Positions 45,280-60,262 of a DNA stretch of 64,000 bases are shown here, piece after piece (position 1 is the stretch's first letter; every line of letters begins with the position of its first letter). Origin of the DNA: Betaproteobacteria bacterium UBA2592 (GTDB taxonomy: Bacteria > Pseudomonadota > Gammaproteobacteria > Burkholderiales > Rhodocyclaceae); NCBI GenBank assembly GCA_002340095.1, contig DDKS01000067.1:831-64830 (forward strand), given 5' to 3'. The notes beneath the pieces were generated by a model. It did no database searches, was not told where the DNA came from, and saw only the letters and a program-made list of their open reading frames with translations. The translations under genes and the position numbers were made by a program.

Positions 45280-45479
45280 ATGAAATGCGCTTCTTGACGT
45301 TGATGGCCGATTACAACCGCTGGATGAACGAGAAACTCTATGCGGTCTGCGCGCAAATGTCAGACGAGACACGAAAACGTGATCTCGGTGCCTGCTTCCG
45401 CTCTATCAGGCCGTCCTGCTAGTTCGCCCGGCGCACCCCAGAGGTCTGCAGGGCGGCACGCGGCTTCGATGCCCTCGGC
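45280..45479 (+). repeat. Diverged, internally deleted second copy of the dinB 5' end fused to the PNPOx 3' end (dinB' remnant)
   Basis: 45280-45406 matches 42600-42726 and 45409-45479 matches 43165-43235, so the equivalent of 42727-43164 is missing. The residual frame MRFLTLMADYNRWMNEKLYAVCAQMSDETRKRDLGACFRSIRPSC ends in a stop. Confidence 0.85.
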
Positions 45480-45587
45480 ATTTATGCCAGAAAACGTGGA
45501 AAAACACCGGGAAATACGGCTTTTTCGTAAAAAAGGCAAAAAACCGAGGAAGGCCACGCCCCCGGGCGCGCTGCGGCGCAGTGCCGC

Positions 45588-45620
45588 AAAAAAAGGCCAG
45601 ATCCGGAGATCTGGCCTTTT
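45588..45620 (-). terminator. Rho-independent terminator after tRNA-Pro
   Basis: Minus strand reads AAAAGGCCAGATC-TCCG-GATCTGGCC followed by TTTTTTT. Confidence 0.8.
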
Positions 45621-45632
45621 GTCTGAATCAAA

Positions 45633-45709
45633 TGGTCGGGGCGGCGGGATTCGAACTCGCGACCCCTTGCACCCCATGCAAGTGCGCTACCAGGCTGCGC
45701 CACGCCCCG
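45633..45709 (-). tRNA. tRNA-Pro (anticodon GGG)
   Basis: Acceptor CGGGGCG/CGCCCCG, D-arm GCGC..GCGC, anticodon arm CTTGC-ATGGGGT-GCAAG, encoded CCA. The T-stem GCGAG/CCCGC has one A-C mismatch. Confidence 0.88.
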
Positions 45710-45720
45710 ACGAGCTGCGC

Positions 45721-45749
45721 ATTATATAGACTTCAATGGCGGTGCGCAA
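45721..45749 (-). promoter_or_regulatory. Sigma-70-type promoter for tRNA-Pro
   Basis: Minus strand reads TTGCGC, a 17-nt spacer, TATAAT, then the GC-rich discriminator GCGCAGCTCG, then the tRNA. Confidence 0.45.
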
Positions 45750-45786
45750 GCCTTTTCTGCATTGTTCCCTGTTCCTTTTGCGCCCT

Positions 45787-46059
45787 TCAGCCGCCCTGGT
45801 CCTCGATCCCGTACTTTTTCTCCAGCCGGCGCATGGCGAGCGCATAGCAGCCGACCACCAGCACGTAGATGATCAGGCTGCCCTGGGCCGCCATGTAGAA
45901 CCCCAGGGGAAAGCCGAAGAAGGAAAAGCCGTTGAGGCTGTCGGCAAAGTAGCTGGCCACGTAGGTCACCAGCACCCAGATCAGCAGCAGGGCCAGGGTC
46001 AGCTGCCGGTTGCGCAGCCAGTAACGCTGCTTCCGCTGTTCGAGCTCAGGGGTTTTCAT
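45787..46059 (-). CDS. DUF4212 protein (putative solute:sodium symporter small subunit)
   Basis: [58 protein letters not shown], 2 TM segments. Its ATG overlaps the symporter stop (ATGA at 46056-46059). Confidence 0.85.
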
Positions 46060-48086
46060 AGGGCCGGATACCGCACGCTTTCGACGAATTCCTGGATTTC
46101 CCGGGACGGGGGCGGGGTCAGCAGGCTGACCACCAGGATGACCAGCATGCCCGTGCCCACGCCCCAGACACCGGCGGCGATGGACTGGATGCCGAACCAG
46201 GGCTCCATGCGCAGGTCATGCAGGCCCAGCCAGGCGATGTGGTCCACCTCGAGCCGGACGATGTAGTAGAGACAGACCAGCCCCCCGACGAGCATCCCGG
46301 CGATGGCCCCCTGCTTGTTGGCGCGTTTCCAGAAGATGCCCAGCACCAGGGCCGGGAAGAAGGCCGAAGCCGCCAGGGAGAAGGCCCAGGCCACCATGTA
46401 GAGGATGGTGCCGGGCTTCTGGGCCGCCACCGTGGCCGCCAGCACCGCCACCACCAGGAGCAGGGACTTGGAAATCACCAGGCGCCACTGGGTCGAGGCA
46501 TCGGGACGGATGATGCGGTAATAAACGTCGTGGGATAGGGCGCTGGTGATGGTGAGCAAGAGGCCGTCGGCGGTGGACAAGGCCGCGGCCAGACCACCGG
46601 CCGCCACCAGGCCGGAAATGACGTAGGGCATGCCGGCGATTTCGGGCATGGCCAGCACGATCACGTCCGGGTTGAGGCTGAGTTCGGCCAGTTGCAGGCG
46701 GCCATCCCCGTTGATGTCCTCGATGCTCACCAGCCCCACTCGGCTCCAGGCCGAGAACCAGGCGGGCAGCTTGTCGAGCTCCAGGTTGACCAGGTGGGTG
46801 TAGATCTCGAACTTGGCGAACACGGCGTAGGCCGGGGCCGTGAGGTAGAGGAGCATGATGAACAGCAGGGACCAGAACACCGATTCCCGGGCCTGCCCCA
46901 CCGTGGGCGTGGTGTAGTAGCGGATCAGCACGTGCGGCAGCGCCGCGGTCCCGATGGTGAGGCAGAACACCAGGGCGAGGAAATTGATCCTGGCCTGATC
47001 CCGCTCCTGCTCCGTGTCCCCCGGGTAGGCCTGGGCATGGGGCCTGGGTGCCCGGGCCTTTTCCTCGGCCAGGCGCATTTCCTCGAGCCAGCGTTCCCGC
47101 GCCAGTTCCGGCGTGGCCGGCAGATCCCGCCGCTGGCGCTCCAGGGCGATGATGTCCCGGGCATGGGCGTCGCTGTCCTTCAGGGCGTTGATGCGCCGGG
47201 TGATGGCATCCCGCTCTTCCTGCAGGGATACGGGCAGTCGCTCAATCTTTTCCCGGAAGGTGGCGGCCCGGGCGGCATACTGCTCCCGGGCCGCCACCTC
47301 GCCGGGCCGGACAAACAGCTCCTGCTCCACCTCGCCCACCTGGGCCAGCACCTGGCCGTACATCACCTGGGGCACGGGCACGCCGGTGTTCTGGTAGGAG
47401 AGGATGGCCACGGGCACCACGTAGGCCACGATCAGGATCACGTACTGGGCCACCTGGGTCCAGGTCACGGCGCGCATACCCCCCAGGAAGGAGCAGACCA
47501 GGATGCCGGCCAGGCCGACAAACACCCCCACCTCGAACTGCAGGCCGACAAAACGGCTGGTGATCAGGCCCACCCCATAGATCTGGGCCACCACATAGAC
47601 GAAGGAGCAGAGGATGGCGGCGCCCACCCCCACCAGCCGGGCGCCATTGCCGCCATAACGGGCGCCGAGGAAGTCGGGAATGGTGTACTGGCCGAAACGG
47701 CGCAGGTAGGGCGCGAGCAGCAGGGCCACCAGCACGAAGCCACCGGTCCAGCCAAGCACGTAGGCCAGCCCCTGATAACCGGCCAGATACAAGGTGCCCG
47801 CCAGACCGATGAAGGAGGCTGCGCTCATCCAGTCGGCCCCGGTGGCCATGCCGTTGAAGATGGCCGGCACCCGGCGCCCGGCCACGTAATACTCGGACAC
47901 GTCGGCGGTGCGGCTCAGGACGCCGATGGCGGCATAAAGGAAGATGGTGAAGAACAAGAATACATAGCCGATCCAGCGCGCCGGCATGCCCTGGTACTCC
48001 AAAAAGGCCAGGGTGCCGATCAGGGCCAGGAAACCGCAGGTATACCAGCTGTAGTAGCGGCGCAACTGCTGGGAGAAGGTGCTCAC
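46056..48086 (-). CDS. Sodium:solute symporter family permease, VC2705/ActP-like
   Basis: EYYVAGRRVPAIFNGMATGADWMSAASFIGLAG..., many TM segments plus a long charged cytoplasmic insert (residues around 250-345). The GTG start directly follows the upstream stop. Confidence 0.9.
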   Translation of the reverse strand: MSTFSQQLRRYYSWYTCGFLALIGTLAFLEYQGMPARWIGYVFLFFTIFLYAAIGVLSRTADVSEYYVAGRRVPAIFNGMATGADWMSAASFIGLAGTLYLAGYQGLAYVLGWTGGFVLVALLLAPYLRRFGQYTIPDFLGARYGGNGARLVGVGAAILCSFVYVVAQIYGVGLITSRFVGLQFEVGVFVGLAGILVCSFLGGMRAVTWTQVAQYVILIVAYVVPVAILSYQNTGVPVPQVMYGQVLAQVGEVEQELFVRPGEVAAREQYAARAATFREKIERLPVSLQEERDAITRRINALKDSDAHARDIIALERQRRDLPATPELARERWLEEMRLAEEKARAPRPHAQAYPGDTEQERDQARINFLALVFCLTIGTAALPHVLIRYYTTPTVGQARESVFWSLLFIMLLYLTAPAYAVFAKFEIYTHLVNLELDKLPAWFSAWSRVGLVSIEDINGDGRLQLAELSLNPDVIVLAMPEIAGMPYVISGLVAAGGLAAALSTADGLLLTITSALSHDVYYRIIRPDASTQWRLVISKSLLLVVAVLAATVAAQKPGTILYMVAWAFSLAASAFFPALVLGIFWKRANKQGAIAGMLVGGLVCLYYIVRLEVDHIAWLGLHDLRMEPWFGIQSIAAGVWGVGTGMLVILVVSLLTPPPSREIQEFVESVRYPAL

Positions 48087-48719
48087 TCAGGACTCCCCGT
48101 GCAACCAGCGGCGCGCCCTGACCTGCTCCTGCAGCGCTGCCGGCGTCTCGATGCCCCGGGTGCGGGCAGCATTGAGCAGCCGCTGCAGCAGGCGGGCCAG
48201 CAGCAGGGCATCCTGCATCGGATCCCGCACAGCTTCGGGTCCCAGGCCTGCCTGCTCGAGCCAATGGTCCAGAGTGGCATCCGGCAGCGCTGCCTCCCGG
48301 TGGATTTCCGGCAGCAGCACCGCCAGGTCCAGCCACATGGAGCGGAACTCCAAGTCCAGGCTGGCTTCCAGGGCCTGCTCCAGAAACGGGCGCAGGAAAG
48401 GCAGCTGGAAGCCGACCAAGGGGGCCTTGCCGACGAACTCCAGCCAGGCAAGCCAGGCTTCCGGGTCAGGCTGGCCGGGTTCAATCCAGAAGGCATCGTC
48501 CGGGCGGATGCGGCCGTGGGTGAGCCCTACTGCCGCCAGGGAGCGGATGGCATGGCTCTGGGGGTCCAACCCGTCGGTCTTCAGGGACAGCACCACATAG
48601 CGGGTCTGGTAGTGGGCCTGCCCCAGGGAGGGCGGTGCCAGGGCCTGCCAGGCCTGCAGACGCTGCTGCTGCGGGATGGACAGGAGTGGCGCGTTTTTTC
48701 CGAAGAAGCGCATGGGCAT
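48087..48719 (-). CDS. DnaQ/RNase T-fold protein with substituted catalytic residues (pseudo-exonuclease)
   Basis: Aligns to the exonuclease domain of the 723-aa protein in this cluster, with substitutions: VVLSLKTDGLDP vs VFDTETTGLEP, LVGFQLPFLRPFL vs LVAHNAAFDMRFL, VRDPMQDALL vs RHNALGDAYA. Confidence 0.7.
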   Translation of the reverse strand: MPMRFFGKNAPLLSIPQQQRLQAWQALAPPSLGQAHYQTRYVVLSLKTDGLDPQSHAIRSLAAVGLTHGRIRPDDAFWIEPGQPDPEAWLAWLEFVGKAPLVGFQLPFLRPFLEQALEASLDLEFRSMWLDLAVLLPEIHREAALPDATLDHWLEQAGLGPEAVRDPMQDALLLARLLQRLLNAARTRGIETPAALQEQVRARRWLHGES

Positions 48720-48722
48720 GGC

Positions 48723-50669
48723 TCATCCTGCCTGGAAATCCAGCCGCAGCTTCTGCTGCAGCTTCCTCGCCTGGCGGAAGGCTTCCTTGAGGATGCGCCG
48801 GTCCAGTTCATTGAGGCGATCCGGGTAGATCAGGTTGTGCCCCTGCCCCCCCTCCACGCCGTCGAGCTGCTGCTGGCGCAGGCGCAGGAGCTGGATGTAG
48901 TTGAAGGCCTCGATGATGCCGCCCATCTCCTCCTCGTTGAAGGAAAGCCGGGCCGCCGCCTGACGCAGGCGCAGTACCGTGTTGGTCTGATAGACACCGG
49001 CAGCGAGGGCGTAGATGCGGGCCCCATCCACGAACAGGCGGGCACCGTATTTTTTCAGGTCGATGGCGCCCGGATGGTCGGCTTCCAGATCGGTGACAAA
49101 ATCGCGGATCATCCCCAGGGGCGGATGCACGGACAGGGCATTGACCGTCATGGCGCGCAGGAAGATCGGGCTTTCCGCCGCATGGGCGAGCAGCATGTGG
49201 CGCAACCGGCTGGCCAGATGGGTCTGGCCATAGAGGGGGCGGAAATCGAAGAAGATGGAAGCGTTGAGCAGGGCCTCCGGCTGGGGCCGGCGCATCCATT
49301 CGGCAAACAGCTCCTGCCATTCCTCCAGGGTCAGGCACCACTGGGGATTGCTGGCCATGATGTTGCCCTTGCACAAGGGAAAGCCGCAGCGATCCAGATC
49401 CGCATTCACGGCCCGGGCAAATTCGAGCAGGCGCATCTTCAGCATTTCCCGGTCGCTGAAGTCGTCGCAGACGAAGATGATGCCGTTGTCCTGGTCAGTA
49501 CTGAAAGTCTGCTCGTCTCGGCCCTCGGAACCAAAGGCCAGCCAGCACCAGTCGATGCCGTAGAGGTCGTGGTGATCCAGATTCAGTTCGAGGATGCGGC
49601 GGGTGAGTGCGTCATTGAGGGTGGAAATGAACTGGGTGAGCTGCTCGGCCCCCACCCCCTGGGCCAACATGTTGAAGGCCAGCTTGCGGATGTCCCGGGC
49701 CGCCTGCTGCAGCGCTTCCACATCGGGAGCCCGCTCGATGGCCTGACGGATCTGGGTGAGGCCGATGCGCTGCAGGGCAAACAGATCCCGCTCCGAAACC
49801 ACGCCGCACAGGCGCCCTTCGCCGTCGACGACCAGCACATGGCGGATGCCCCGGCTGGCCATGGCCAGCATCGCATCGTAGGCACTGGCATGCTCCCCGA
49901 GGCAGCAGGGGTCGGGAGTCATCACCTGGGCGGTGGGCACATCCAGGGAAGTACCCGCCAGCACCACCCGGTCGAGCAGGTCCGCCCGGGTCAGGATGCC
50001 CACGGGCCGGTGCGCCTCGTCCACCACGGCGACGGACCCCACATGGCTGCGGGACATGGTCTCCAGCGCCTGGCGCAGGGGAGTGTCGCGGCCCACCTGG
50101 ACCGGATCGCGCGAACCGACCTGGGCCAGCGGCGAATTGAGGGTCTGCTGGTCACTGGCCTGCTGGGCGAACAGGAGCTGCAACTGCTGGCGCGACTGGT
50201 TGAGCAAGGTGGCGATGTAGCGGGTGCAGAAGGCATTGAACTCTGGGCTCATCTCCATCAAGTCGAGCACATCGTCGGCCTGCAGCACAAAGCAGTAAAC
50301 ATCGGTGGCTGCCACATAGCGGTTGGTGGAAGGCCGCTGGGCCGTCACCGCGCCGAGGGGAAAACATTCCCCCACCCCCAGGGCCAGCACCGCGTGGCCG
50401 GCCAGCCCCGTCTCCCCCGCATCCAGGGACTGTACCTTACCCTGCTCGATGATGTAGAGATTCCGGGCCACGCCCTCCCCCGGACCGGTGATTTCGGCCC
50501 CCCTGGGGTAGAAGACGGAGGCGGCCCGCTCGGCCAGATAGTCCAGCGCCCGGGTTTCCATGCGCTGGAATGGCAGATGACGTTTCAGGAAACCCTGGGT
50601 GATCCTGGCCACCCTTTGTTGTCCCTGAACACCGGGCCCTGCCACCGGGCCCTGCTGTTCCCCGATCAA
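48723..50669 (-). CDS. cNMP-binding / tandem CBS / DUF294 nucleotidyltransferase signalling protein
   Basis: N-terminal CAP-effector-like domain (LYIIEQGKV...GECFPLGA), two CBS modules (GSVAVVDEAHRPVGILTRADLL; RHVLVVDGEGRLCGVVSERDLF), and the pol-beta NTase motif LAFGSEGRDEQTFSTDQDNGIIF. TTG 50669 is preceded by AGGAGA. Confidence 0.85.
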   Translation of the reverse strand: MIGEQQGPVAGPGVQGQQRVARITQGFLKRHLPFQRMETRALDYLAERAASVFYPRGAEITGPGEGVARNLYIIEQGKVQSLDAGETGLAGHAVLALGVGECFPLGAVTAQRPSTNRYVAATDVYCFVLQADDVLDLMEMSPEFNAFCTRYIATLLNQSRQQLQLLFAQQASDQQTLNSPLAQVGSRDPVQVGRDTPLRQALETMSRSHVGSVAVVDEAHRPVGILTRADLLDRVVLAGTSLDVPTAQVMTPDPCCLGEHASAYDAMLAMASRGIRHVLVVDGEGRLCGVVSERDLFALQRIGLTQIRQAIERAPDVEALQQAARDIRKLAFNMLAQGVGAEQLTQFISTLNDALTRRILELNLDHHDLYGIDWCWLAFGSEGRDEQTFSTDQDNGIIFVCDDFSDREMLKMRLLEFARAVNADLDRCGFPLCKGNIMASNPQWCLTLEEWQELFAEWMRRPQPEALLNASIFFDFRPLYGQTHLASRLRHMLLAHAAESPIFLRAMTVNALSVHPPLGMIRDFVTDLEADHPGAIDLKKYGARLFVDGARIYALAAGVYQTNTVLRLRQAAARLSFNEEEMGGIIEAFNYIQLLRLRQQQLDGVEGGQGHNLIYPDRLNELDRRILKEAFRQARKLQQKLRLDFQAG

Positions 50670-50762
50670 GACGATTCTCCTGGTGAATTAAAGCGTTGGG
50701 GCTTGCATTTTATGTGCTGGCGGCCCAGGCGGGCAGATGCTCACCCGCACCGGGGCCGCGCG

Positions 50763-52934
50763 TCAGTACTTGACCCGGGCAAAATAGGTCTTCTGGGAAG
50801 CCTCCAGGGCCTGGCGCAGGGTGTGGATGCCCTTTTCCGCCAGCAGCGGGATCATCTTCAGGAAGACCTCGCCGGTGGCATAGGCATCTCCGAGCGCGTT
50901 GTGACGGCCGATGATCGGGACGCCCAGGCGCTCGGCGATCACGTCGAGCTTGTGGGATTCCTGATTCGGGTGGATGACGGCGGAGAGCAGCAGGGTGTCG
51001 AGCACCGGCTGGGAAAACTTAAGGCCGGTGCGCTCTTCCTTGAGCTGCAAGAAGCGCATGTCGAAGGCGGCGTTATGGGCCACCAGCACGGTTTCGCTGC
51101 AAAAGGCATGGAACGCGGGGAGGACCACATCGATGCTGGGCTTGCCGCGCAACATCTCCTCGGTGATGCCGTGGATGGGAATGCCCTCGGGTCGCAACGG
51201 ACGCTGGGGATCCACGAGCTGGTCAAAAGACTCCTGACGCAGTAGGCGACCGTTTACGATACGCACGGCCCCGATCTGGATGATTTCATCGCCATTGGCA
51301 GGCTCCAGCCCGGTGGTCTCGGTATCGAAGACCGTGTAGGCCATTTCCATCAGGTTGCGGTCCAGGTCCACCCCGGTGTCCTGGAAGTTGAACAGGTCAA
51401 AGTCGTAATATTCGGGACGGCCCTGCTGGGCGCCGGCAGGCAGCTCCGGCACCTCCTGGACGGCCTGGGCCAGAGGCAACACAAAGCGGAAATAGGCCCG
51501 GTGCGCCGCCTTCTCCCGCTGGTACCAGATCTCCCCGCCGTGCCGGTCGAGCACTTCACGCAGGGACACGGGTGCGCTTTCGCGGCCCACCTGCATGTTC
51601 TCCTGCTCCCAGCTGTAGAAGGTTTCGGAGGACATGGCATGGCCGGACCAGATCAGGTCCAGATAGGCCAGCTTCCCCTCGGACAGCCCCCGGAAGCGCA
51701 ACTCGCGGATTTCGTAGTGGTCGGCCAGCCGGCCGGCCAGGAAGGTGATGGCGAAGATCAGGGAAAAGCTGTCGGCCCGGACCCAGAGGTTGTCCTCGAT
51801 GCCCTCGATCTTGCTCGACAGCTTGAAGAGCTCGTCGATGCGCCGCTGGGCCGCCTTGATCAGATCCTCCGCCGACACATCCTCCAGCGGCCAGCGGGTC
51901 TTGGTGGCATCGGCAAAGCGCTGGGCCGTCCCCTCCAGCTGCCGGCTCATGCGCCCCACTTCCTCGGCCACCACCTGGATGAAGCGTTCGCGCTCCTGCA
52001 TGTCCATGTCGGGATAATCCTGCAGGGTTTCGACGGCGGCCCGGATATTGCCGATGGCGGCCCGGTTACCCTGGGTCAGTTCCAGAAGTGCCTGGTTGCG
52101 GGCATTTTCCTGTTCCAGGCTGCGGGTGATGTTTTCCACGGTGAGCACATAACCGGTCATGGGGCGAGGTCCGGCTTCGGCCTCCCCGGGAGCCAGCACC
52201 GGCACCATCTGCACGCGCAGGAACTGGCCGCTCGCAGTGGTGGTGATGAAGTGGGCCACATTGGCAGGCAGTCCGCGTTCGAGCCGCTGGCGGATGGTTT
52301 CCTCGGCATGGGCCAGGCGGCTCCGGTCGATGATAGAGAAGATGGAGCGTCCCAGCCCGATCAGGGCACCGGAGGCCACCGAGGTCGGCCCCTGGGCCAG
52401 GGTGTGAAATTCCAGGCGGGCCCGGTTGTTGTAGAGCAGGATACGACCATCCAGATTGCACACCACCACGGCCTGGGCCAATTCCGACATGAGGGCGGCG
52501 AGGCGGTTCTTTTCCTCCTCCACCGAGGCCTTGGCCCGGGCGATCTGAGCCTCCACGTCGGCCATCAGCTCGTCCCGCTGCTGGGCCAGGTCGTTGATGG
52601 CCCGGGCCACCAGCTGCACCTCGGGCGGACCATCCTCGGCAGTGACACGGAAATTGCGGTTGGCCCCAAGCATCAGGCGCAGGTGCTCGGCCATGCGCAG
52701 CAGGCCCTGGACATACTGGCGAAAGAGGGTGCGCACCACCGCCAGACCCAGGCCAAACCCCAGGGCGGTGAGCAGAGTGCCCATGGGCAGGTGGGGCACG
52801 ATCAGCTCCTTGAGCTGGGTCCGCTGGTCGGGAGTCATTTCCATCCACACCAGGGTGGAAGTGGCCAGGAAGGGCCCCGTAACCAGGGCGCCCAGCACCA
52901 GAATCGCCAGGATGAATCGATAGCGGGCCTGCAT
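50763..52934 (-). CDS. Membrane HAMP-PAS-pseudo-histidine-kinase fused to a DEDDh 3'-5' exonuclease domain
   Basis: 2 TM segments, a HAMP-like linker, and PAS (AVVVCNLDGRILLYNNRA). The DHp-like helix LTQGNRAAIGNIRAAVETL has Gln where the neighbouring kinase has His (VTHELRTPLTSIRAFSELL). The CA-like domain lacks N/G1/G2 boxes. The C-terminal exonuclease has intact FDTETTGL, HNAAFD and HNALGD motifs. Confidence 0.85.
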   Translation of the reverse strand: MQARYRFILAILVLGALVTGPFLATSTLVWMEMTPDQRTQLKELIVPHLPMGTLLTALGFGLGLAVVRTLFRQYVQGLLRMAEHLRLMLGANRNFRVTAEDGPPEVQLVARAINDLAQQRDELMADVEAQIARAKASVEEEKNRLAALMSELAQAVVVCNLDGRILLYNNRARLEFHTLAQGPTSVASGALIGLGRSIFSIIDRSRLAHAEETIRQRLERGLPANVAHFITTTASGQFLRVQMVPVLAPGEAEAGPRPMTGYVLTVENITRSLEQENARNQALLELTQGNRAAIGNIRAAVETLQDYPDMDMQERERFIQVVAEEVGRMSRQLEGTAQRFADATKTRWPLEDVSAEDLIKAAQRRIDELFKLSSKIEGIEDNLWVRADSFSLIFAITFLAGRLADHYEIRELRFRGLSEGKLAYLDLIWSGHAMSSETFYSWEQENMQVGRESAPVSLREVLDRHGGEIWYQREKAAHRAYFRFVLPLAQAVQEVPELPAGAQQGRPEYYDFDLFNFQDTGVDLDRNLMEMAYTVFDTETTGLEPANGDEIIQIGAVRIVNGRLLRQESFDQLVDPQRPLRPEGIPIHGITEEMLRGKPSIDVVLPAFHAFCSETVLVAHNAAFDMRFLQLKEERTGLKFSQPVLDTLLLSAVIHPNQESHKLDVIAERLGVPIIGRHNALGDAYATGEVFLKMIPLLAEKGIHTLRQALEASQKTYFARVKY

Positions 52935-52937
52935 GAC

Positions 52938-53309
52938 TCAGCCCCCCGCCAGGAGCTGTTTGATCTGTGCCACCAACTCCTTGTTGGAGAAGGGTTTTGT
53001 CACGTAGGCATCGGCCCCGAGGCCCAGTCCCTTCGCGACTTCCGTGTCCCTGCCCTTGGCGGTGAGCATGACGATTTTCATGGCGCTGCGGGCCGGATCG
53101 GCCCGCAGGATCTCGCACACCTCGTAACCGGACTTCTTCGGCATCATCACGTCCAGCAGCACCAAATCCGGGGCAAAAGCCTGAACCTGCTCCAGGGCTG
53201 CGTCCCCGTCGGCCGCCACAGCCACCTGGAAGCCCTCCCGCTTCATGAGGAATTCCAGGGACAAGACGATGTTCGGTTCATCATCGACGATCAGGATCTT
53301 GTGGGTCAT
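52938..53309 (-). CDS. Single-domain response regulator (CheY-like, no output domain)
   Basis: MTHKILIVDDEPN...DLVLLDVMMPKKSG...VMLTAKG...AYVTKPF. All phospho-acceptor pocket residues are present. GGGAGGAGAG precedes ATG 53309. Overlaps the kinase 3' end by 29 nt. Confidence 0.9.
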   Translation of the reverse strand: MTHKILIVDDEPNIVLSLEFLMKREGFQVAVAADGDAALEQVQAFAPDLVLLDVMMPKKSGYEVCEILRADPARSAMKIVMLTAKGRDTEVAKGLGLGADAYVTKPFSNKELVAQIKQLLAGG

Positions 53310-56034
53310 GGGGTCTCTCCTCCCGTTGTTCTGTTTTCGTTCCATCCTTTTTCCGGGGCAGCTCGAAGATGAAGACCGCTCCCTGGCCAAGCTCGCTTTC
53401 CACCCACAAGCGCCCCCCGAAATATTCGACGATCTGCCGGCTGATGGGCAGTCCCAGGCCAGTGCCCTTGGGCTTGTCCGTCAGGGTGTTGCCGCCCTGG
53501 CGGAAACGCTCGAAGATGAATTCCTTTTCCTCGGGTCCGATGCCCGGCCCGTTGTCACGGACGGAAACCCGCACCCGGTCAGCGGTGCATTCCAGGGTCA
53601 CTGTCACCTGCCCGGCACCGGCCGGCACAAACTTCACAGCGTTGGAAAGCAGGTTGATCATCACCTGGGTGAGCCGGTCCTGATCCGCCATCACCAGCAC
53701 CGGCTGGTCTGGGCAATCCAGCCGCAGCGCCACGGCTTTGTCCCGGAACAACTGCTCCATGGCGGTGGCCGCATGCCGGATCAGGGCGGGCAGATCGACC
53801 TGGCTGGCCGTCCAGTCGGCCCGTCCGGATTCGAGCTTGGCCAGATCGAGGATCTGATTGATCAGCCGGGTCAGGCGCTCGGTCTCCGTCACGATGATAC
53901 CGAGAAAACGCTGACGGTCCACCACCTCCATCCCCGGATCATCGGCCAACAATTCGGAAAAGGCCCGGATGGACGTCAGGGGAGTACGCAGCTCGTGGGT
54001 GACGGTGGAAACGAAATCATCCTTGAGCCGGTCCAGCTCCCGCAGCTGGGCGTTGGCGGCACGCAATTCCCGGGTGGCGGCCTCCAGCTCCCGGGACTTC
54101 TTCTCCAGTTCGCGGCTGTAGGCGCGGATCTGGGAGGCCTCGTCGAGGATGTTGAGCACTTCGTCCAGATCCAACGCTTCTTCCTCCACCACCGAAGCCA
54201 GCACCACCCGGGCGCTGGCAGAACCAATGGCACCGGCCAGCTGGGCTTCGGCAAAGCGCACCAGTTCGGCATCCACCTCGCGGTTTTCCAGCTGAGTCAG
54301 CCCCCGCTTGCGGGCATAGGACTGCAGCTGCTGCCGGGCCCGCTCTGGCCCCAGGAAGCGTTCGAGCAGCCCGGCCAGGGCCTGGTAGGAAGCACGGCCG
54401 CGCCAGAGCAGCCGGCTGGCCTGGGTGACGCGGCGCTGAAACACATCCACGAACAGGTTGGCCTGGCCAGCCTCCACGGCATCGGGACGAACGGTCAGGG
54501 AAACCAGCACGTACAGGCCCAGGTTGAAGAACAGGCTCCAGAAGAGGCAGTGGGAAATTTCGTCAAACCCCTCGAGACCAAACAGGGCATGGGCCCGGAG
54601 CCACTCGATGCCCCACAGGCCCTGGCTGACGAAATCGCCGGAAATCCAGCCCGACTTGGCGAAGGAAGGCAGCAGCAGGGTATAGCCCCAGATCAGGAAA
54701 CCGGCGAGCAGGCCGGCCAGGGCCCCGGCCCGGTTGCCCTGCTTCCAGTACATGCCGCCGAACAGGGCGGGGGCGAACTGGGCCACGGCGGAGAAGGAGA
54801 TCAGGCCAATGCCCACCAGGGCGTGGGCTTCGCCGGCCGCGCGGAAATAAATGTAGCCCAGGAGCAGAATGAGGGCGATGGCAACCCGGCGGATGTTGAG
54901 CAGCAGACGCGACAGGTCTGAACGCTGCTCCAGGCCCAGGGCCCGCACCCGCAGCAGGGCGGGCATGACCAGATCGTTACAGACCATGGTGGACAGGGCG
55001 ATGGTCTCGACGATCACCATGCCCGTGGCCGCCGAAAGGCCGCCAATGAAGGCCAGCAGGGCCAGGGATTCCCGGCCCTGGGAGAGGGGCAGACTGAGGA
55101 CAAAGGTGTCGCCGTTGCCGGGCATCCCCTGCAGCAGACCGGCCAGGGCGATGGGCAGGACAAAGATGTTGATGAGCAGCAGATAGAGGGGAAAGAGCCA
55201 GACCGACCGACGCAAGTGCCCTTCGTCCACATTCTCCACCACCATGATCTGGAACTGGCGCGGCAGAAGGATGATGGCCAGCGCCGACAGCAACACGAGT
55301 GACGTCCAGCTCGCCAGGCTGGGCTCCAGCCCCAGCAGCCGGGACAGTTCCGGCACGGCCGCCGCTCGGGCAAAGATGTCACCAAACCCATCGTACAAGA
55401 CGAAGGTAACAAACATCCCCACGGCCAGGAAGGCTAGCAGCTTGACGAGGGACTCGAAAGCAATGGCCGCCACCATACCCTCGTGCCGCTCGGTGGCATC
55501 CAGGTGCCGGGTGCCGAACAGGATGGTGAACGCAGCCAGGGCAATGGCGATCACCGCCGTGGTATCCAGTCCCAACAGCGAGACTCCTTGCCCATGCGGG
55601 AAAAGAACTTGCAGACTCGAGGCAATCGCTTTGAGCTGCAAGGCGATGTAAGGCACGATGCCGATCACGGCAATCACGGTTACAAGGCCGGCCAAAGATT
55701 GGCATTTGCCATAACGGGCTGCGATGAAGTCAGCAATGGAGGTGAGGCGTTCCCGCTTGCTGATGCGGATGATCTTCAAGATCACCGGCACGAGCATGAG
55801 CATGAGGGTAGGCCCGAGATAGATGGTAAGAAAGCCCAGCCCACCGGATGCAGCCCGGCCTACGCTGCCGTAAAAGGTCCACGAAGTGCAGTAAACCGCC
55901 AGGGACAAAGCATAGACATTTGCGGTAATGATCGACCGTCCCTGATCGGCACGTCGGTCGCCAAAGCGGGCAATGGCGAACAGCAGGAGCAGGTAGCCCA
56001 CCGCCAGAAGGAAGACGGCCCAGGGACTCATCAC
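53281..56034 (-). CDS. Sodium/solute-symporter-fused sensor histidine kinase (CrbS/CbrA/MxtR-like architecture, non-hybrid)
   Basis: An N-terminal SSS-like domain of about 500 aa (many TM), a STAC-like linker, a coiled coil, the H-box STVTHELRTPLTSI, and HATPase motifs NLLSNAVKF, RDNGPGI, GTGLGLPI. No receiver domain. Start is GTG 56034 or ATG 56031. Confidence 0.9.
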   Translation of the reverse strand: MMSPWAVFLLAVGYLLLLFAIARFGDRRADQGRSIITANVYALSLAVYCTSWTFYGSVGRAASGGLGFLTIYLGPTLMLMLVPVILKIIRISKRERLTSIADFIAARYGKCQSLAGLVTVIAVIGIVPYIALQLKAIASSLQVLFPHGQGVSLLGLDTTAVIAIALAAFTILFGTRHLDATERHEGMVAAIAFESLVKLLAFLAVGMFVTFVLYDGFGDIFARAAAVPELSRLLGLEPSLASWTSLVLLSALAIILLPRQFQIMVVENVDEGHLRRSVWLFPLYLLLINIFVLPIALAGLLQGMPGNGDTFVLSLPLSQGRESLALLAFIGGLSAATGMVIVETIALSTMVCNDLVMPALLRVRALGLEQRSDLSRLLLNIRRVAIALILLLGYIYFRAAGEAHALVGIGLISFSAVAQFAPALFGGMYWKQGNRAGALAGLLAGFLIWGYTLLLPSFAKSGWISGDFVSQGLWGIEWLRAHALFGLEGFDEISHCLFWSLFFNLGLYVLVSLTVRPDAVEAGQANLFVDVFQRRVTQASRLLWRGRASYQALAGLLERFLGPERARQQLQSYARKRGLTQLENREVDAELVRFAEAQLAGAIGSASARVVLASVVEEEALDLDEVLNILDEASQIRAYSRELEKKSRELEAATRELRAANAQLRELDRLKDDFVSTVTHELRTPLTSIRAFSELLADDPGMEVVDRQRFLGIIVTETERLTRLINQILDLAKLESGRADWTASQVDLPALIRHAATAMEQLFRDKAVALRLDCPDQPVLVMADQDRLTQVMINLLSNAVKFVPAGAGQVTVTLECTADRVRVSVRDNGPGIGPEEKEFIFERFRQGGNTLTDKPKGTGLGLPISRQIVEYFGGRLWVESELGQGAVFIFELPRKKDGTKTEQREERPHDPQDPDRR

Positions 56035-56040
56035 GGCGGC

Positions 56041-56229
56041 TCAACCCCGGGGGCCTTCGGACACCCAGGCCGCCAGGGCGATGAGAATCGCCCAGGCTCC
56101 GAACAGATAAAGGCCGGGCCCCGCCCCGCCATCCCCCGCCTGGACATGCAACATTGGAGGATTGAAAAGCACCAGGCCGAGAAGGGCCAGGGCCACCAGG
56201 CGCTGCCGTTCGATGTTGAATCGCCCCAT
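56041..56229 (-). CDS. 62-aa two-TM protein upstream of the symporter-kinase
   Basis: MGRFNIERQRLVALALLGLVLFNPPMLHVQAGDGGAGPGLYLFGAWAILIALAAWVSEGPRG. GAAGGA sits 6 nt before ATG 56229. Its stop lies 6 nt before the kinase start. The longer track ORF start (56325) is less plausible. Confidence 0.55.
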   Translation of the reverse strand: MGRFNIERQRLVALALLGLVLFNPPMLHVQAGDGGAGPGLYLFGAWAILIALAAWVSEGPRG

Positions 56230-56438
56230 CAGTTTCCTTCCCGGAAAATACAGACGAAAACGGCCGACGCACGCATGCGCCGGCCGCTTCGGGCGCCACG
56301 CAGGGCGTGGCCGCCATTGGGACACCCGGACTGCTGATAGGTGCCCATGTCTCTCTCCTGCCTCCTTATCAGTGTGTTTCAGACGGGCATGGGCAGAATG
56401 CCCGCCTGGAATCCGCTTCCCGGCGCGGAGCCGGGGAA

Positions 56439-56466
56439 GCTTCCGGGATCCATGGACCCCGGAAGC
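56439..56466 (-). terminator. Hairpin immediately after acs (possible terminator/processing site)
   Basis: GCTTCCGGG...CCCGGAAGC, a 9-bp stem around a 10-nt palindromic loop, 3 nt after the acs stop. No clean U-tract. A second bulged hairpin follows at about 56416-56439. Confidence 0.4.
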
Positions 56467-56469
56467 GGG

Positions 56470-58437
56470 TCAGCCCTTGAGCTGCTCCAGGATGGCCGGG
56501 TTTTCCAGGGTGGAAGTATCCTGGGTGACTTCCTCGCCCTTGGCCAGGGAACGCAGCAGACGACGCATGATCTTGCCGGAACGGGTCTTGGGCAGGTTGT
56601 CGCCGAAGCGGATGTCCTTCGGCTTGGCGATGGGACCGATTTCCTTGCCCACCCAGTCCTGCAGTTCCTTGATGATCTTCTTGGCTTCGTCGCCGGTCGG
56701 ACGGGCCCGCTTGAGCACCACGAAGGCCACGATGGCTTCGCCGGTCAAGTCGTCGGGACGCCCCACCACGGCGGCTTCGGCCACGAGTTCGTGCGCCACC
56801 AGGGCGGATTCGATTTCCATGGTGCCCATGCGGTGGCCAGACACGTTGAGCACATCGTCGATACGGCCGGTGATAGTGAAGTAACCGGTCTTGGCATCAC
56901 GGATGGCGCCATCGCCTGCCAGATACAGGCGACCACCCAGATCCTCGGGGTAGTAGGACTTCTTGAACCGCTCGGGATCGCCCCAGATGGTACGGATCAT
57001 GGAAGGCCAGGGCTTCTTGACCACCAGGATACCGCCCTGACCCCAGGGCACATCGGAACCCGTCTCGTCCACCACTGCGGCCTGGATGCCGGGGAAGGGC
57101 AGCGTGCAGGAACCAGGCACCAGAGGGGTTGCACCGGGCATCGGAGTAATCATGTGCCCCCCCGTCTCGGTCTGCCAGAAGGTATCGACGATGGGGCAAC
57201 GACCACCGCCCACATTCTGGTAGTACCACTCCCAGGCAGCGGGATTGATGGGCTCACCCACGGAACCCAGCAGGCGCAGACTGGACAGGTCGTAGTTCTT
57301 GGGATGCACGGCGGGGTTGGCATCGGCCGCCTTGATCAGGGAACGGATGGCGGTCGGCGCAGTATAGAAGATGGTGGCCTTGTGGTCCTGGATCATCCTC
57401 CAGAAACGGCCGGCGTCCGGATAGGTGGGCACGCCTTCGAACACGACCTCGGTGGCACCGCAGGCCAGGGGGCCGTAAGTGATGTAGGTGTGACCAGTGA
57501 CCCAGCCGATATCGGCGGTACACCAGAAGACATCGGAAGGCTTGATGTCGAAGGTGTATTTCATGGTCAGAATGGCATGCAGCAAGTAACCACCGCTGGA
57601 GTGCTGCACTCCCTTGGGTTTGCCGGTGGAACCGGATGTGTAGAGCAGGAACAGGGGATGTTCGGCCTCGACCCACTCGGGCTCGCAGGTATCGGGCTGA
57701 TTGGCCAGACCTTCGTGCAGCCACTCGTCACGGCCAGGCACCATATTCACTTCGGCACCGGTGCGCTTGAAGACGATGACATGCTTGACGGACTCGCAGC
57801 CGCCCATGGAGAAAGCCTCGTCGGCGATGGGCTTCAGGGGAATGGACTTGCCGCCGCGGAACTGGCCATCGGAGGTGATCAGCACAACAGCGCCAGCATC
57901 GTTGATACGGTCGCGCAGGGACTGGGCGGAGAAACCGCCGAAGACGACGGAATGGGTGGCGCCAATGCGGGCGCAGGCCTGCATGGCGACGACGCCCTCG
58001 ATCGTCATGGGCAGATAGATGACGACGCGATCACCCTTCTTGACCCCCTTGCTTTTGAGCAGGTTGGCCATCTTGCAGACGCGGACCAGCAGTTCCTTGT
58101 AGGTCACCTTGGTGACCTGGCCGTCATCAGCCTCGAAAATGATGGCGGTTTTGTCGCCGTTACCAGCCTCGATGTTGCGATCCAGACAGTTATAGGAGAC
58201 GTTCAGCTTGCCATCGGAGAACCACTTGTAAAAAGGCGCATCGGACTCATCCAGCACCTGGGTGAAGGGGGTCTGCCAGCTCACCAGTTCCCGTGCATGG
58301 CGGGCCCAGTAGCCTTCGTAATCCTGTTCCGCCTCCGCGCACAGCGCCTTGTAGGCATCCATCCCGGAAACAGCTGCATTCTTCACGAACTCGGGGGACG
58401 GATAGTAAAGCTGCACGGATTCATTCGACATAGACAT
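56470..58437 (-). CDS. acs: Acetyl-CoA synthetase
   Basis: [19 protein letters not shown]-binding motif [32 protein letters not shown]. The start may be the second ATG at 58431, which has better spacing to GAGGAGA. Confidence 0.95.
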
Positions 58438-58741
58438 TCTCCTCTGCGGTATAGGTATCGGGTGATACTTCGGATGAACTGCATAAACAGACGTTTTCGC
58501 AGCATTAGACTCAGATAATCTTACAAAGCGCTTACACTTTCACGCTGCAGCGCAGCATCTGCGCGGCTTGCAGGGCCGCAGCAGCCCATGGCGCTCATGA
58601 TAAAATCCGGCCCGCCCTGCCCCGCATCCTTCGCGACACCCATGACGCCGGCGCCCCCGGCCATGGATCCCGCCGTGGGCGGGATCGCCGGACGACGGCC
58701 CGGAAAGCCCCCCCCGCAACGACCATCACGGAGATAAGCAC

Positions 58742-60262
58742 ATGACAAGTATCCGCCAGGAAGACCTGATCCAGTCCATCGCCGACGCCTTCCAGTACAT
58801 CAGCTACTACCATCCCCTGGACTACATCAAGGCCCTGGGCGAAGCCTACGAGCGTGAGGAATCCCCCGCCGCCAAGGATGCGATTGCCCAGATCCTGACC
58901 AATTCCCGCATGGCTGCTGAAGGCCACCGCCCCATCTGCCAGGATACCGGCATCGGCATGGTCTTCCTCAAGGTCGGCATGAACGTGCGCTGGGACGATG
59001 CCACCATGAGCCTGCAGGAGATGGTCAACGAAGGCGTGCGCCGTGCCTACGCCAATCCGGACAACCCGCTGCGCGCCTCGGTGCTGGCCGACCCGGCCGG
59101 TGCCCGCAAGAACACCAAGGACAACACCCCGGCCGTCGTGCATTACGAGATCGTCCCCGGCGACCACGTGGAAGTCATCTGCGCCGCCAAGGGGGGCGGC
59201 TCGGAAGCCAAATCCAAGTTCGCCATGCTCAACCCGTCCGACGACCTGGTTGACTGGGTGCTGAAGAAGATTCCGGAAATGGGCGCCGGCTGGTGCCCGC
59301 CGGGCATCATCGGCATCGGCATCGGTGGCACGCCGGAAAAGGCCATGCTGCTGGCCAAGGAATCGATCATGGCGCCGGTGGACATCCACGAATTGAAGGC
59401 TCGCGGCCCGAAGAACCGCGCCGAGGAACTCCGTCTCGAGCTGTACGAAAAGATCAACGCGCTGGGCGTTGGCGCCCAGGGTCTGGGCGGCCTGACCACC
59501 GTGCTCGACGTCAAGGTGCTCGACTACCCTTGCCACGCGGCCAACCTGCCGGTCGCGCTGGTGCCGAACTGCGCCGCCACACGCCACTGCCACTTCCATC
59601 TGGATGGCTCCGGCCCGGCCAGGCTCGAACCGCCCAAGCTCTCCGACTGGCCGGCCGTGACCTGGACACCGGATATCAAGTCGGCGACCCGCGTCAATCT
59701 CGACACCCTGACCAAGGACGAAGTCGCCTCCTGGAAGGTCGGCCAGAAGCTGCTCTTGAACGGCAAGATGCTCACCGGCCGCGATGCCGCGCACAAGCGC
59801 ATCCAGGACATGCTGGCCAAGGGTGAGAAGCTGCCGGTCGATTTCACCAACCGCGTCATCTACTATGTTGGCCCGGTCGATCCGGTGCGCGACGAAGTCG
59901 TCGGCCCGGCCGGTCCGACCACCGCCACCCGCATGGACAAGTTCACCCGCATGATGCTGGAAAAAACCGGCCTCATCTCGATGATCGGCAAATCCGAGCG
60001 CGGTCCGGTCGCCATCGAGGCGATCAAGGACAACAAGTCGGCCTACCTGATGGCCGTGGGCGGCGCCGCCTACCTCGTGGCCAAGGCGATCAAGTCGGCC
60101 AAGGTGGTGGGATTCGAGGATCTGGGCATGGAAGCGATTTACGAGTTCGAAGTGCAGGACATGCCGGTGACGGTGGCGGTGGACTCCACCGGTGCGAACG
60201 TCCATGAAAGCGGCCCGAAGGAATGGCAGATCAAGATCGGCAAGATTCCGGTCAAGGCCTGA
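58742..60262 (+). CDS. fumA: Class I (Fe-S) fumarate hydratase
   Basis: ICQDTGIGMVFLKVG, AAKGGGSEAKSKF, GIGIGGTPEKAM, and a C-terminal beta-type domain (LLLNGKMLTGRDAAHKR). GGAG sits 8 nt before the ATG. Confidence 0.9.
   Translation: MTSIRQEDLIQSIADAFQYISYYHPLDYIKALGEAYEREESPAAKDAIAQILTNSRMAAEGHRPICQDTGIGMVFLKVGMNVRWDDATMSLQEMVNEGVRRAYANPDNPLRASVLADPAGARKNTKDNTPAVVHYEIVPGDHVEVICAAKGGGSEAKSKFAMLNPSDDLVDWVLKKIPEMGAGWCPPGIIGIGIGGTPEKAMLLAKESIMAPVDIHELKARGPKNRAEELRLELYEKINALGVGAQGLGGLTTVLDVKVLDYPCHAANLPVALVPNCAATRHCHFHLDGSGPARLEPPKLSDWPAVTWTPDIKSATRVNLDTLTKDEVASWKVGQKLLLNGKMLTGRDAAHKRIQDMLAKGEKLPVDFTNRVIYYVGPVDPVRDEVVGPAGPTTATRMDKFTRMMLEKTGLISMIGKSERGPVAIEAIKDNKSAYLMAVGGAAYLVAKAIKSAKVVGFEDLGMEAIYEFEVQDMPVTVAVDSTGANVHESGPKEWQIKIGKIPVKA

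Follow-up and report, generated by a model that had tools for sequence, protein, structure and literature searches.

The 64,000 nt stretch of Betaproteobacteria bacterium UBA2592 (Rhodocyclaceae; contig DDKS01000067.1) analysed here, referred to below as the window, carries between positions 45787 and 58437 a cluster of nine minus-strand genes that combines acetate activation and solute uptake with two-component signalling. Within this cluster, a sensor histidine kinase of the SLC5/STAC type, a receiver (REC) without an output domain, a pseudo-histidine-kinase fused to a DEDDh exonuclease (SX) and a nucleotidyltransferase (NTase) of the DUF294 family form a conserved functional neighbourhood. 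This arrangement suggests that bacterial two-component signalling may have an enzymatic output not described before. The nine genes are listed from the acs side.

56470..58437, minus strand: acs, acetate-CoA ligase, 655 amino acids (aa) (TIGR02188, 977 bits; Pfam ACAS_N, AMP-binding and AMP-binding_C)
56041..56229, minus strand: CbrX-like two-helix membrane peptide, 62 aa; conserved small open reading frame (ORF) 6 nt upstream of the kinase
53281..56034, minus strand: SLC5/STAC sensor histidine kinase, 917 aa (PDB 10ED match; HisKA 671-737; HATPase_c 784-895)
52938..53309, minus strand: stand-alone receiver (REC-only), 123 aa (Response_reg, E 2e-30)
50763..52934, minus strand: SX, HAMP-PAS pseudo-histidine-kinase with DEDDh exonuclease, 723 aa (RNase_T 535-691, E 1.4e-36)
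48723..50669, minus strand: cNMP-binding/2xCBS/DUF294/DUF294_C nucleotidyltransferase, 648 aa, TTG start (Pfam)
48087..48719, minus strand: dead DnaQ-fold protein (dQ), 210 aa (weak DnaQ-like NCBIfam matches; comparison with the SX exonuclease)
46056..48086, minus strand: VC_2705-family sodium/solute symporter large subunit, 676 aa (TIGR03648, 788 bits against a cut-off of 321; Pfam SSF)
45787..46059, minus strand: DUF4212/TIGR03647 symporter small subunit (97.8 bits against a cut-off of 26), sharing its first 4 nt with the end of the permease gene

These nine co-directional ORFs, which lie in a GC-rich stretch (61-67%), are present where an earlier reading made from the letters alone (the original prediction) had placed them. 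Junction lengths recomputed from the coordinates (acs side first: 240, 6, -29, 3, 93, 3, 0 and -4 nt) are identical to its overlaps of 29 and 4 nt, its single abutment, its 3-6 nt spacers and its gaps of 93 and 240 nt. Its domain readings, including the calls of a pseudokinase and of a dead DnaQ-fold protein, were all correct when compared with Pfam/NCBIfam, hhalign and residue comparison.

SX and the conserved signalling neighbourhood

The AlphaFold model of SX, built on a 30-sequence alignment, has a mean predicted local distance difference test score (pLDDT) of 78.5 and is divided as follows.

Residues 3-32: first transmembrane helix (TM1)
Residues 35-90 and 104-150: second transmembrane helix (TM2), continuing into long HAMP-like helices
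Residues 155-268: PAS domain
Residues 270-345: two DHp helices
Residues 351-488: CA-like alpha/beta domain
Residues 492-520: disordered linker
Residues 532-720: exonuclease

Foldseek placed the N-terminal part closest to full-length WalK, VicK, YF1 and ThkA, and the C-terminal part closest to PolC (root-mean-square deviation, rmsd, 1.8 A; 36% identity), the DinG exonuclease and the DnaQ epsilon subunit. Against the epsilon subunit the target-normalised TM-score of the exonuclease is 0.84, and the Thermotoga PolC exonuclease is matched with E 6e-34. The fold and all DEDDh catalytic residues agree with those of PolC and DnaQ, whereas the SX exonuclease stands outside any polymerase, being fused to a membrane-anchored sensor/pseudokinase within a carbon-uptake cluster.

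The kinase-like half of SX is related to the neighbouring kinase. The SX family profile (residues 278-500) aligns with the DHp-CA region of that kinase in hhalign with a probability of 97.7% and E 1.4e-12, and both share a DHp helix alpha-1 pattern of L-T-x-x-x-R-x-x-L-x-x-I-R-A-x-x-E-x-L. In the hhalign alignment the H-box of the kinase, THELRTPLTSIRAFSELL, corresponds to TQGNRAAIGNIRAAVETL in SX, with the His replaced by Gln288, and the G2 box GTGLGL corresponds to ESAPVSL, such that G2 is lost. Among 99 diverse full-length SX sequences the His position is occupied by E in 56, Q in 11, D in 8, A in 7 and H in 3, and the family lacks the phospho-acceptor His as well as the ATP-lid glycines. 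The DEDDh residues D537, E539, D625, H678 and D683 are each kept in 95-97 of the same 99 sequences. Since the His is missing family-wide and the DEDDh residues are kept, SX is best described as a family-wide pseudokinase with a live nuclease; judged by its residues, the exonuclease is catalytically intact.

SX represents a large undescribed protein family. With the N-terminal 525 residues as query, 1466 clusters were matched at E<=1e-3 and 432 at E<=1e-30 in a representative library clustered at 50% identity. Nearly all family members are ~710-740 aa in length, and a family of this size with near-uniform length indicates that the fusion is old. The most invariant motif of the sensor half, RPE[FY]YDFDLF (SX residues 506-515; window 51389-51418, minus strand), lies in the disordered linker before the nuclease, a conservation that suggests a docking or modification site. 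Likewise, the PAS domain has an invariant C159, H209 and GLGRS loop (residues 193-197), which suggest a bound ligand or cofactor.

Immediately upstream of SX are the kinase and receiver genes. The original prediction had read the kinase as fused to a sodium/solute symporter domain, and this is borne out by a match of residues 7-609 to PDB 10ED, the cryo-EM structure of the SLC5-STAC part of Pseudomonas CbrA (E 2e-75), although Pfam SSF gives no match to the N-terminal 600 aa even at E<=10. The alignment reaches residue 585 of the 606 in the 10ED chain, a span that should cover STAC. Given the extent of this match, the protein is read as an SLC5/STAC 'transceptor' kinase. HisKA (E 2.6e-19) and HATPase_c (E 1.9e-31) follow, with the H-box, G1 and G2 intact in 60/60 orthologues. 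Family scans of the kinase returned neither a PAS nor a Response_reg match; a coiled coil of ~50 residues between residue 609 and HisKA replaces the PAS of CbrA/CrbS, and the protein ends ~20 residues after HATPase_c.

The 62-aa ORF in front of the kinase has no family match. It is conserved nonetheless at 39-56% identity by tblastn in many loci, is called as a gene in two Azovibrio contigs (L171 and L172), and has small ORFs in the equivalent position in the distant loci L085 and L086. CbrX, to which it is likened, forms a hairpin that binds the CbrA SLC5 domain, and its translation is coupled to that of CbrA (PMC6591292; PMC13488458). The window thus resembles the CbrXA system both in the homologous SLC5 and probable STAC domains and in a small two-helix membrane peptide immediately upstream, which with its 6-nt spacer is probably also translationally coupled. 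In CbrA, by contrast, a PAS domain is present, the ligand sensed is histidine and the downstream partner is the sigma-54 activator CbrB, whereas the partner of the window kinase is receiver-only and the context is acetate.

The receiver gene starts 29 nt before the end of the kinase gene and stops 3 nt before SX. Among 127 aligned sequences (the window and 126 orthologues) D10 and D53 never vary, and D9 is kept in 125. From these alignments, the phosphotransfer residues of both kinase and receiver are under selection. In NCBIfam the receiver is nearest to PhoB/OmpR-family receivers and the kinase core to PhoR/WalK/PnpS types.

Conservation of the neighbourhood was assessed in two sets of loci, onto both of which the window proteins were mapped. 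A genome scan with the SX linker motif, using one genome per species, found relatives in at least 581 genomes; the best 80 loci were analysed, all of them from Rhodocyclales or other Betaproteobacteria. A metagenome scan ranked against a Caldilineae-like SX member supplied 80 further, more diverse loci, of which those with an SX <60% identical to that of the window are termed distant. The arrangement recurs in these 160 independent loci. Lack of conserved co-occurrence had been named as a refutation of the original prediction; co-occurrence is conserved, with the following counts.

REC directly upstream of SX: 66/77 genome loci and 41/49 distant metagenome loci (84-86% of ~125 informative loci)
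SLC5 kinase adjacent: 61/70 genome loci and 22/27 distant metagenome loci
acs upstream: 41/58 genome loci
DUF294 gene directly downstream of SX: 46/70 genome loci and 19/40 distant metagenome loci
DUF294 gene anywhere in the locus: 13/16 distant metagenome loci

SX starts a median of ~3 nt after the REC stop (125 loci). Four loci contain the REC-SX pair without the kinase and one contains kinase and SX without REC, so that the linkage of REC to SX is tighter than its linkage to the kinase. The conserved order is small transmembrane peptide, SLC5/STAC kinase, REC-only regulator and SX. Even SX members that are only 29-36% identical are found in REC-SX, acs-SX-DUF294-SSF and DUF294-smallORF-kinase-REC-SX arrangements, the last of these in a locus annotated as a metagenome-assembled genome of Caldilineae (a class of Chloroflexi). 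The window comes from an Azovibrio-like member of the Rhodocyclales, and its nearest protein relatives are in Azovibrio, where the 723-aa protein is 86-91% identical and contigs L171 and L172 have the same gene order.

The gene downstream of SX is lineage-dependent, and may be a 340-aa DUF294 core, a 470-aa CBS-DUF294 protein or, in Thauera and Aromatoleum, the permease directly. The full block of cNMP-CBS-DUF294 protein, dQ and permease is typical of Dechloromonas, Azonexus and Azovibrio. In A. restrictus (L171:12177-13232) and in most Dechloromonas/Azonexus loci a short 351-aa DUF294-core paralogue is located between SX and the full-length DUF294 gene. This paralogue is missing in the window, L172, L015 and L031, and the window keeps only a 93-nt spacer at this site (50670-50762, minus strand).

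The DUF294 protein itself matches Pfam DUF294 with E 2e-48 and DUF294_C with E 5e-41, and homologues of equal length and start were found. The G-S...D-x-D NTase motif of its core is intact, and all 15 diverse DUF294 forms compared, whether long, medium or short, carry the signature GSEGRxEQTxxTDQDN unchanged. Published work places DUF294_C in one Pfam clan, KNTase_C, with the C-terminal domains of GlnD and GlnE, enzymes that nucleotidylate proteins (PMC3710099). The likeness to GlnD/GlnE comprises a Pol-beta NTase core with G-[GS]-x-G-R-x-E...[ST]-D-x-D, a following helical substrate-binding domain of that clan (PMC3710099), and the logic of a nutrient-controlled writer and remover. In GlnD/GlnE, by contrast, removal is carried out by an HD domain or a second NTase domain rather than a DEDDh nuclease, and the regulatory domains are ACT rather than the cNMP and CBS domains of the window protein.

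Downstream of the DUF294 gene lies dQ. Its alignment with the SX nuclease domain spans the entire DnaQ fold (23% identity, BLASTP E 1e-4); it matches NCBIfam PRK07740 with E 1e-10, and retains an N-terminal extension and a C-terminal tail motif in common with SX. Its catalytic residues are gone: S/K stand at the Exo I D/E, L stands at the Exo II D, and Exo III, of D/P type, has lost its H. All 18 orthologues from the loci (18/18) lack the Exo I E, the Exo II D and the Exo III H and D. The dQ family comprises 13 clusters, 11 of them without a Pfam match; the two remaining relatives, P0407 and P0408 (231 aa), keep DxE, HAAFD and H-x4-D and look active. Their context is a DUF294 gene (54% identical to that of the window), the exonuclease, DUF4212 and SSF. 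Because these active-looking proteins occupy the dQ slot, dQ is an inactivated orthologue of the exonuclease that normally accompanies DUF294.

The permease contains a hydrophilic, charged and helical insert of ~125 aa (residues ~245-375; 46964-47354, minus strand) that is absent from the TIGR03648 model. In Azovibrio L172 the DUF4212 domain is fused to the permease C-terminus in a 768-aa SSF+DUF4212 protein (L172:14852-17158), a fusion which confirms DUF4212 as a permease subunit.

The candidate acs operator and the acs-kinase gap

Signalling through SX would not be the only layer of control in this cluster. The acs gene shares its upstream intergenic region with a divergent fumarase gene, and this region contains a candidate operator and promoter element.

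58520..58535, minus strand: direct repeat GTAAG-N6-GTAAG with an 11-bp period, candidate operator in the acs/fumarase intergenic region
58509-58504, minus strand: -10-like TCTAAT, 10 nt past the end of the GTAAG repeat

No -35 box is present at the acs promoter region carrying the repeat. A direct repeat of 11 bp replacing the -35 box is the pho-box geometry of OmpR/PhoB-type activators. GTAAG-N6-GTAAG has a single match in the 64-kb window; in 46/86 loci examined it occurs once each, always upstream of acs, including the distant locus L084. Additionally, a triple GTAAG repeat precedes a DUF485-SSF (yjcH-actP-like) pair in a Sterolibacterium locus (L047), and a GTAAG repeat precedes DUF4212 in L065. 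The conserved repeat upstream of acs makes an unlinked DNA-binding activator very likely, and an acetate regulon with such a dedicated activator very probably exists. Thus, the proposal that the cluster is wired to nuclease and nucleotidyltransferase proteins 'instead of a transcription factor' is not supported. The observation behind it holds: the receiver has no output domain, and a DNA-binding regulator is encoded neither in the cluster nor in the 64-kb window and is not recurrent in ~170 loci.

A tblastn search of the window with the receiver returned no other clear receiver, the weak REC-GGDEF protein at 60737-61681 aside. All-against-all clustering of unassigned ORFs from 80 loci returned only fumarase, UPF0114, REC-GGDEF and unrelated genes. 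CrbR-type control was considered and rejected, with 0 matches to the ACTU consensus at <=3 mismatches in the window.

The gap between acs and the small ORF upstream of the kinase contains three further elements.

56381..56407, minus strand: leader hairpin P1, with a loop CUGCC complementary to GGCAG (56362-56358) by the Shine-Dalgarno (SD) sequence of the upstream ORF
56229..56348, minus strand: upstream ORF of 39 codons with SD AAGGAGG; its stop overlaps the start of the 62-aa ORF (TGATG)
56257..56290, minus strand: intrinsic-terminator-like hairpin and T-run from a terminator scan, downstream of acs and inside the upstream ORF

Nearly all of 47 acs-kinase gaps contain a hairpin of -15 to -29 kcal/mol followed by a T-run, and the upstream ORF spans this terminator hairpin. 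The Dechloromonas/Azonexus version of the upstream ORF is 35-36 codons long, with an ATGA overlap and an SD context that does not vary; its counterpart in Thauera/Aromatoleum-type loci has 40-42 codons and encodes unrelated peptide sequences, and in L172 it is called as a 41-aa gene. A chance origin of the ORF was rejected, as its SD, length and stop/start overlap are conserved in several genera. P1 is identical in Azovibrio L171 and L172. Eight Dechloromonas/Azonexus loci keep an equivalent P1 stem via compensatory changes, at 9/10 pairs, with an invariant CUUGCC loop facing GGCAAG at the SD. The leader fold has a z-score of -4.6. An Rfam scan of 45000-59000 by E-value matched tRNA-Pro only and returned no family for the leader.

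As the 240-nt gap holds a conserved terminator and an upstream ORF, the array is not one plain operon. The gene order of the original nine-gene array and the length of its largest gap are both right, but the gap is occupied by the 39-codon ORF and by a conserved terminator that separates acs from the kinase operon. P1, the upstream ORF and the terminator may together work as a translation-dependent attenuator, adjusting how much transcription continues from acs into the signalling operon. For mapping the acetate regulon of these bacteria, both the ORF-spanned terminator and the GTAAG operator could be used.

Related systems, proposed pathway and rival explanations

The closest known counterpart is the CrbS/CrbR (MxtR/ErdR) system. 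There, as in the window, an SLC5/STAC-type kinase is associated with acs and a monocarboxylate symporter, and a cNMP-CBS-DUF294 protein followed by a DnaQ-like exonuclease is encoded beside transporter genes (PMC5715377, PMC9927547, PMC9765439). The Pseudomonas pairs (PP_0354/PP_0353, PFLU5625, PA3233/PA3232) are direct MxtR/ErdR (CrbS/R) targets (PMC9927547; PMC5715377; bioRxiv 10.64898/2026.09.07.749794) and are among the most strongly CrbS/R-dependent genes in P. fluorescens, P. putida and P. aeruginosa (PMC5715377, PMC9927547, PMC9765439). The original prediction had placed a DUF294 protein and a DnaQ-like nuclease beside actP in Pseudomonas, and this is published: in P. aeruginosa the two genes adjoin yjcH-actP (PMC5715377, PMC9927547, PMC9765439, bioRxiv 10.64898/2026.09.07.749794). 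Its statement that no experimental description existed consequently applies to one part of the module and not to the other. No description of SX, or of its pairing with a REC-only regulator, was found in the searchable literature, whereas the DUF294/exonuclease pair had been published as MxtR/ErdR targets. The Pseudomonas authors raise protein modification or RNA degradation as speculative roles of the pair (PMC9927547).

The two systems differ in several respects. CrbS is a hybrid kinase with a PAS domain and a C-terminal receiver, both of which the window kinase lacks. CrbR is a LuxR-type DNA-binding regulator acting at the ACTU inverted repeat; the adjacent regulator in the window is REC-only and the window has the GTAAG direct repeat instead. 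The exonuclease partnered with DUF294 is dead in the window, and an additional, sensor-fused and apparently active exonuclease, SX, follows the receiver.

For the reading of phosphorylated receivers by a kinase-like protein, a precedent exists in Caulobacter, where the His-less kinase DivL reads DivK~P (PMC4211667). SX likewise has a DHp/CA module without a phospho-acceptor His and is encoded with a single-domain receiver, and by analogy a reversed information flow would be the natural reading. The two proteins differ in that DivL, with Tyr in place of the His, lacks an enzymatic output and modulates CckA, whereas SX has Glu or Gln at this position and a covalently attached DEDDh exonuclease.

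The overall model that is preferred here, tentatively and at somewhat less than even confidence, is a branched pathway in which the kinase signals via the receiver to the SX exonuclease, which opposes nucleotidylation by DUF294, in parallel to transcription of acs. The cluster would serve acetate/monocarboxylate utilisation and would consist of three units. The first would be acs with its own promoter and pho-box-like GTAAG operator, controlled by a DNA-binding activator encoded elsewhere. The second would be a signalling operon reached only via read-through of the acs terminator, at a level probably set by translation of the leader ORF through the terminator hairpin; its translationally coupled chain would comprise the CbrX-like hairpin, the SLC5/STAC kinase, the receiver-only regulator and SX. 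The third would contain the cNMP/CBS-regulated DUF294 nucleotidyltransferase, its degenerate exonuclease partner and the two-subunit Na+/solute symporter.

In such a pathway the kinase would sense substrate binding or transport via SLC5 and phosphorylate the receiver at D53, as the intact catalytic motifs and the gene linkage suggest. The phosphorylated receiver would dock on the His-less DHp/CA module of SX and switch the C-terminal exonuclease, much as DivK~P acts on DivL; with a REC that has no output domain docking in this way, information would flow from the regulator to the kinase-like protein. The weakest step is the next, in which SX and the DUF294 nucleotidyltransferase(s) would work on one nucleotidylated substrate, with SX providing the hydrolytic side. 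This substrate would most likely be a protein-nucleoside monophosphate (protein-NMP) adduct, on the permease, the small subunit, Acs or the Tyr510 linker motif of SX. DUF294 would write the mark under cAMP/adenylate control and SX would erase it under control of acetate flux, and dQ would persist as a binding partner of DUF294 without catalytic activity. Overall, uptake or activation would be tuned post-translationally, in parallel to the transcriptional control of acs and not in its place. A precedent for cAMP-gated post-translational control of acetate activation is the mycobacterial Rv0998/MSMEG_5458, a cAMP-dependent protein acetyltransferase that modifies acetyl-CoA synthetase and in which a cyclic-nucleotide domain is fused to the modifying enzyme. 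It differs in that the modification is lysine acetylation by a GNAT, with removal by a sirtuin, and in its unrelated fold.

A more specific form of this proposal is that SX constitutes a new output class of two-component systems, in which a phosphorylated REC is read by a His-less kinase module gating a fused DEDDh hydrolase, and in which the hydrolase erases nucleotidyl marks written by DUF294; this is conceivable and at present rather unlikely. That the marks would be placed on the acetate uptake/activation machinery or on the Tyr linker of SX, with the nucleotidylation cycle switching monocarboxylate uptake, is held with similarly low confidence. Such a cycle would give the DUF294/exonuclease pair of the CrbS/R regulon the function long looked for. 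As for the preferred pathway, the pyruvate phenotypes of P. putida, in which loss of the PP_0353 exonuclease delays growth like loss of actP-I and loss of the PP_0354 NTase does not (PMC9927547), would fit an inhibitory writer and an activating eraser by analogy.

Several observations weigh against the nucleotidylation cycle and against a dedicated receiver-SX pathway. A profile search of the PDB with the DUF294 core returned no solved relative, and the matches that hhalign gives between the core and E. coli GlnD (E 0.015, confined to the motif region) or GlnE (E 0.13, motif and following helical domain) are not significant; the connection with protein nucleotidyltransferases is for this reason taken from the Pfam clan and from the study of Anantharaman et al. 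(PMC3710099). The AlphaFold model of the DUF294 protein has a pLDDT of 65, too low for the NTase fold to be placed, and gave only CBS and cNMP matches in Foldseek. In P. putida, deletion of the NTase or the exonuclease produced no acetate phenotype and moderate effects on pyruvate/propionate (PMC9927547; bioRxiv 10.64898/2026.09.07.749794), and both deletions lower growth on propionate, which a simple antagonism does not fit (bioRxiv 10.64898/2026.09.07.749794). Orphan SX genes, 66-69% identical to that of the window, are present in Accumulibacter-type genomes (L010, L017, L020, L022, L024, L025 and L027) and in L105, L110, L116, L117, L126, L143 and L165; no kinase, receiver, acs or DUF294 gene is located within ~8-10 kb of them, and in Ca. 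Accumulibacter phosphatis the SX gene adjoins a phosphofructokinase gene. The existence of orphans means that SX can function without an adjacent REC. We know of no DEDDh exonuclease that removes a protein-NMP adduct. Lastly, the conserved acs operator represents a transcriptional branch, and the receiver could merely feed or buffer that branch.

This last point leads to a doubtful but substantial rival, a shared regulon, in which the kinase signals to an unlinked OmpR/PhoB-type regulator that activates acs, actP and DUF4212-SSS via GTAAG boxes, the REC-only protein is a phosphate sink or buffer, SX is regulated separately via its own PAS, and adjacency reflects co-expression. Single-domain receivers are established as phosphate sinks in chemotaxis. 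The conserved pho-box-like repeat upstream of acs, actP and DUF4212 agrees with such a regulon, as do the similarity of the receiver and kinase core to PhoB and to PhoR/WalK/PnpS types, the invariant C159, H209 and GLGRS loop suggesting a ligand of SX's own, and the orphan SX genes of Accumulibacter. However, a gene for such a regulator is neither recurrent in the ~170 loci nor present in the window, and the receiver keeps closer company with SX than with the kinase (four loci against one, at a median spacing of ~3 nt). Moreover, a His-less DHp/CA module kept over deep divergence needs a function, of which receiver binding is the obvious one.

Nucleic acid as the target is unlikely. DUF294 would then add untemplated nucleotides to the 3' end of a particular RNA (mRNA, tRNA or sRNA) that the exonucleases trim, such that acetate sensing controls RNA stability or maturation; this corresponds to the targeted RNA trimming of the original prediction. 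Pol-beta-fold NTases do include poly(A)- and CCA-adding enzymes, and the nearest relatives of the SX nuclease, namely PolC (36% identity, rmsd 1.8 A), DnaQ, DinG and ExoX, are nucleic-acid exonucleases; mRNA degradation is also the speculation of the P. putida authors (PMC9927547). Yet DUF294_C is allied to GlnD/GlnE/KNTase-type domains, whose substrates are proteins or small molecules and not RNA 3' ends (PMC3710099), SX is membrane-anchored, and the cluster has no conserved RNA gene or Rfam family. Still less probable, and indeed very unlikely, is a nucleotide second messenger, a linear or cyclic (oligo)nucleotide made by DUF294 and degraded by the DEDDh enzyme, with cNMP/CBS gating synthesis and the two-component system gating degradation. 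DEDDh enzymes do include oligoribonuclease-type dinucleotidases that degrade pGpG, Pol-beta-fold enzymes include CD-NTases, and the pairing of a synthase-like with a hydrolase-like enzyme is conserved. Set against this, no receptor or effector for the signal is conserved in the loci, the DUF294 core has no CD-NTase match in the profile search of structures, PADLOC found no CBASS-like or other defence architecture, and a dead exonuclease partner would be hard to explain. The possibility of an anti-phage defence system was rejected on the same scan: among the five signalling/enzyme proteins submitted to PADLOC only generic DEDDh, REC and HATPase matches were obtained, with no match for the DUF294 protein.

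The DUF294/exonuclease pair has had no biochemical function since 2017 and its deletion phenotypes are weak; the question is now testable. The Rhodocyclales architecture offers the stronger genetic handle, since its exonuclease is part of a signalling protein whose gene immediately follows those of a kinase and a receiver. If the preferred branched pathway were true, two-component signalling would gain an enzymatic, non-transcriptional type of output, and DivL-like reversed signalling would gain a second example. A nucleotidylation switch would then also act on short-chain fatty-acid uptake in Dechloromonas, Azonexus, Thauera, Zoogloea and Accumulibacter, organisms important in wastewater treatment and denitrification.

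Genes and elements flanking the cluster

The following features lie on either side of the cluster.

44433-45263, plus strand: DDE transposase fragment, after the tRNA-Pro and terminator
45544-45565, minus strand: terminator, beyond the DUF4212 gene and near the tRNA-Pro
45633-45709, minus strand: tRNA-Pro(GGG), directly downstream of the DUF4212 gene
58742-60262, plus strand: class I fumarate hydratase, divergent from acs and sharing with it the operator-bearing intergenic region
60737-61681, minus strand: REC-GGDEF protein with weak domain scores, upstream of the fumarase
62393-63979, minus strand: Lon protease, upstream of the fumarase

Since the DUF4212 side is followed by a tRNA, a terminator and a transposase fragment, the cluster ends at a tRNA/insertion sequence (IS) junction, which is absent from the Azovibrio relatives. 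On the other side, acs and fumarase are syntenic in 33 loci and also in the distant L085. Relatives have a gene for a UPF0114 membrane protein between the two, and this gene is missing in the window. The REC-GGDEF gene is syntenic in Azovibrio and in some Dechloromonas loci.

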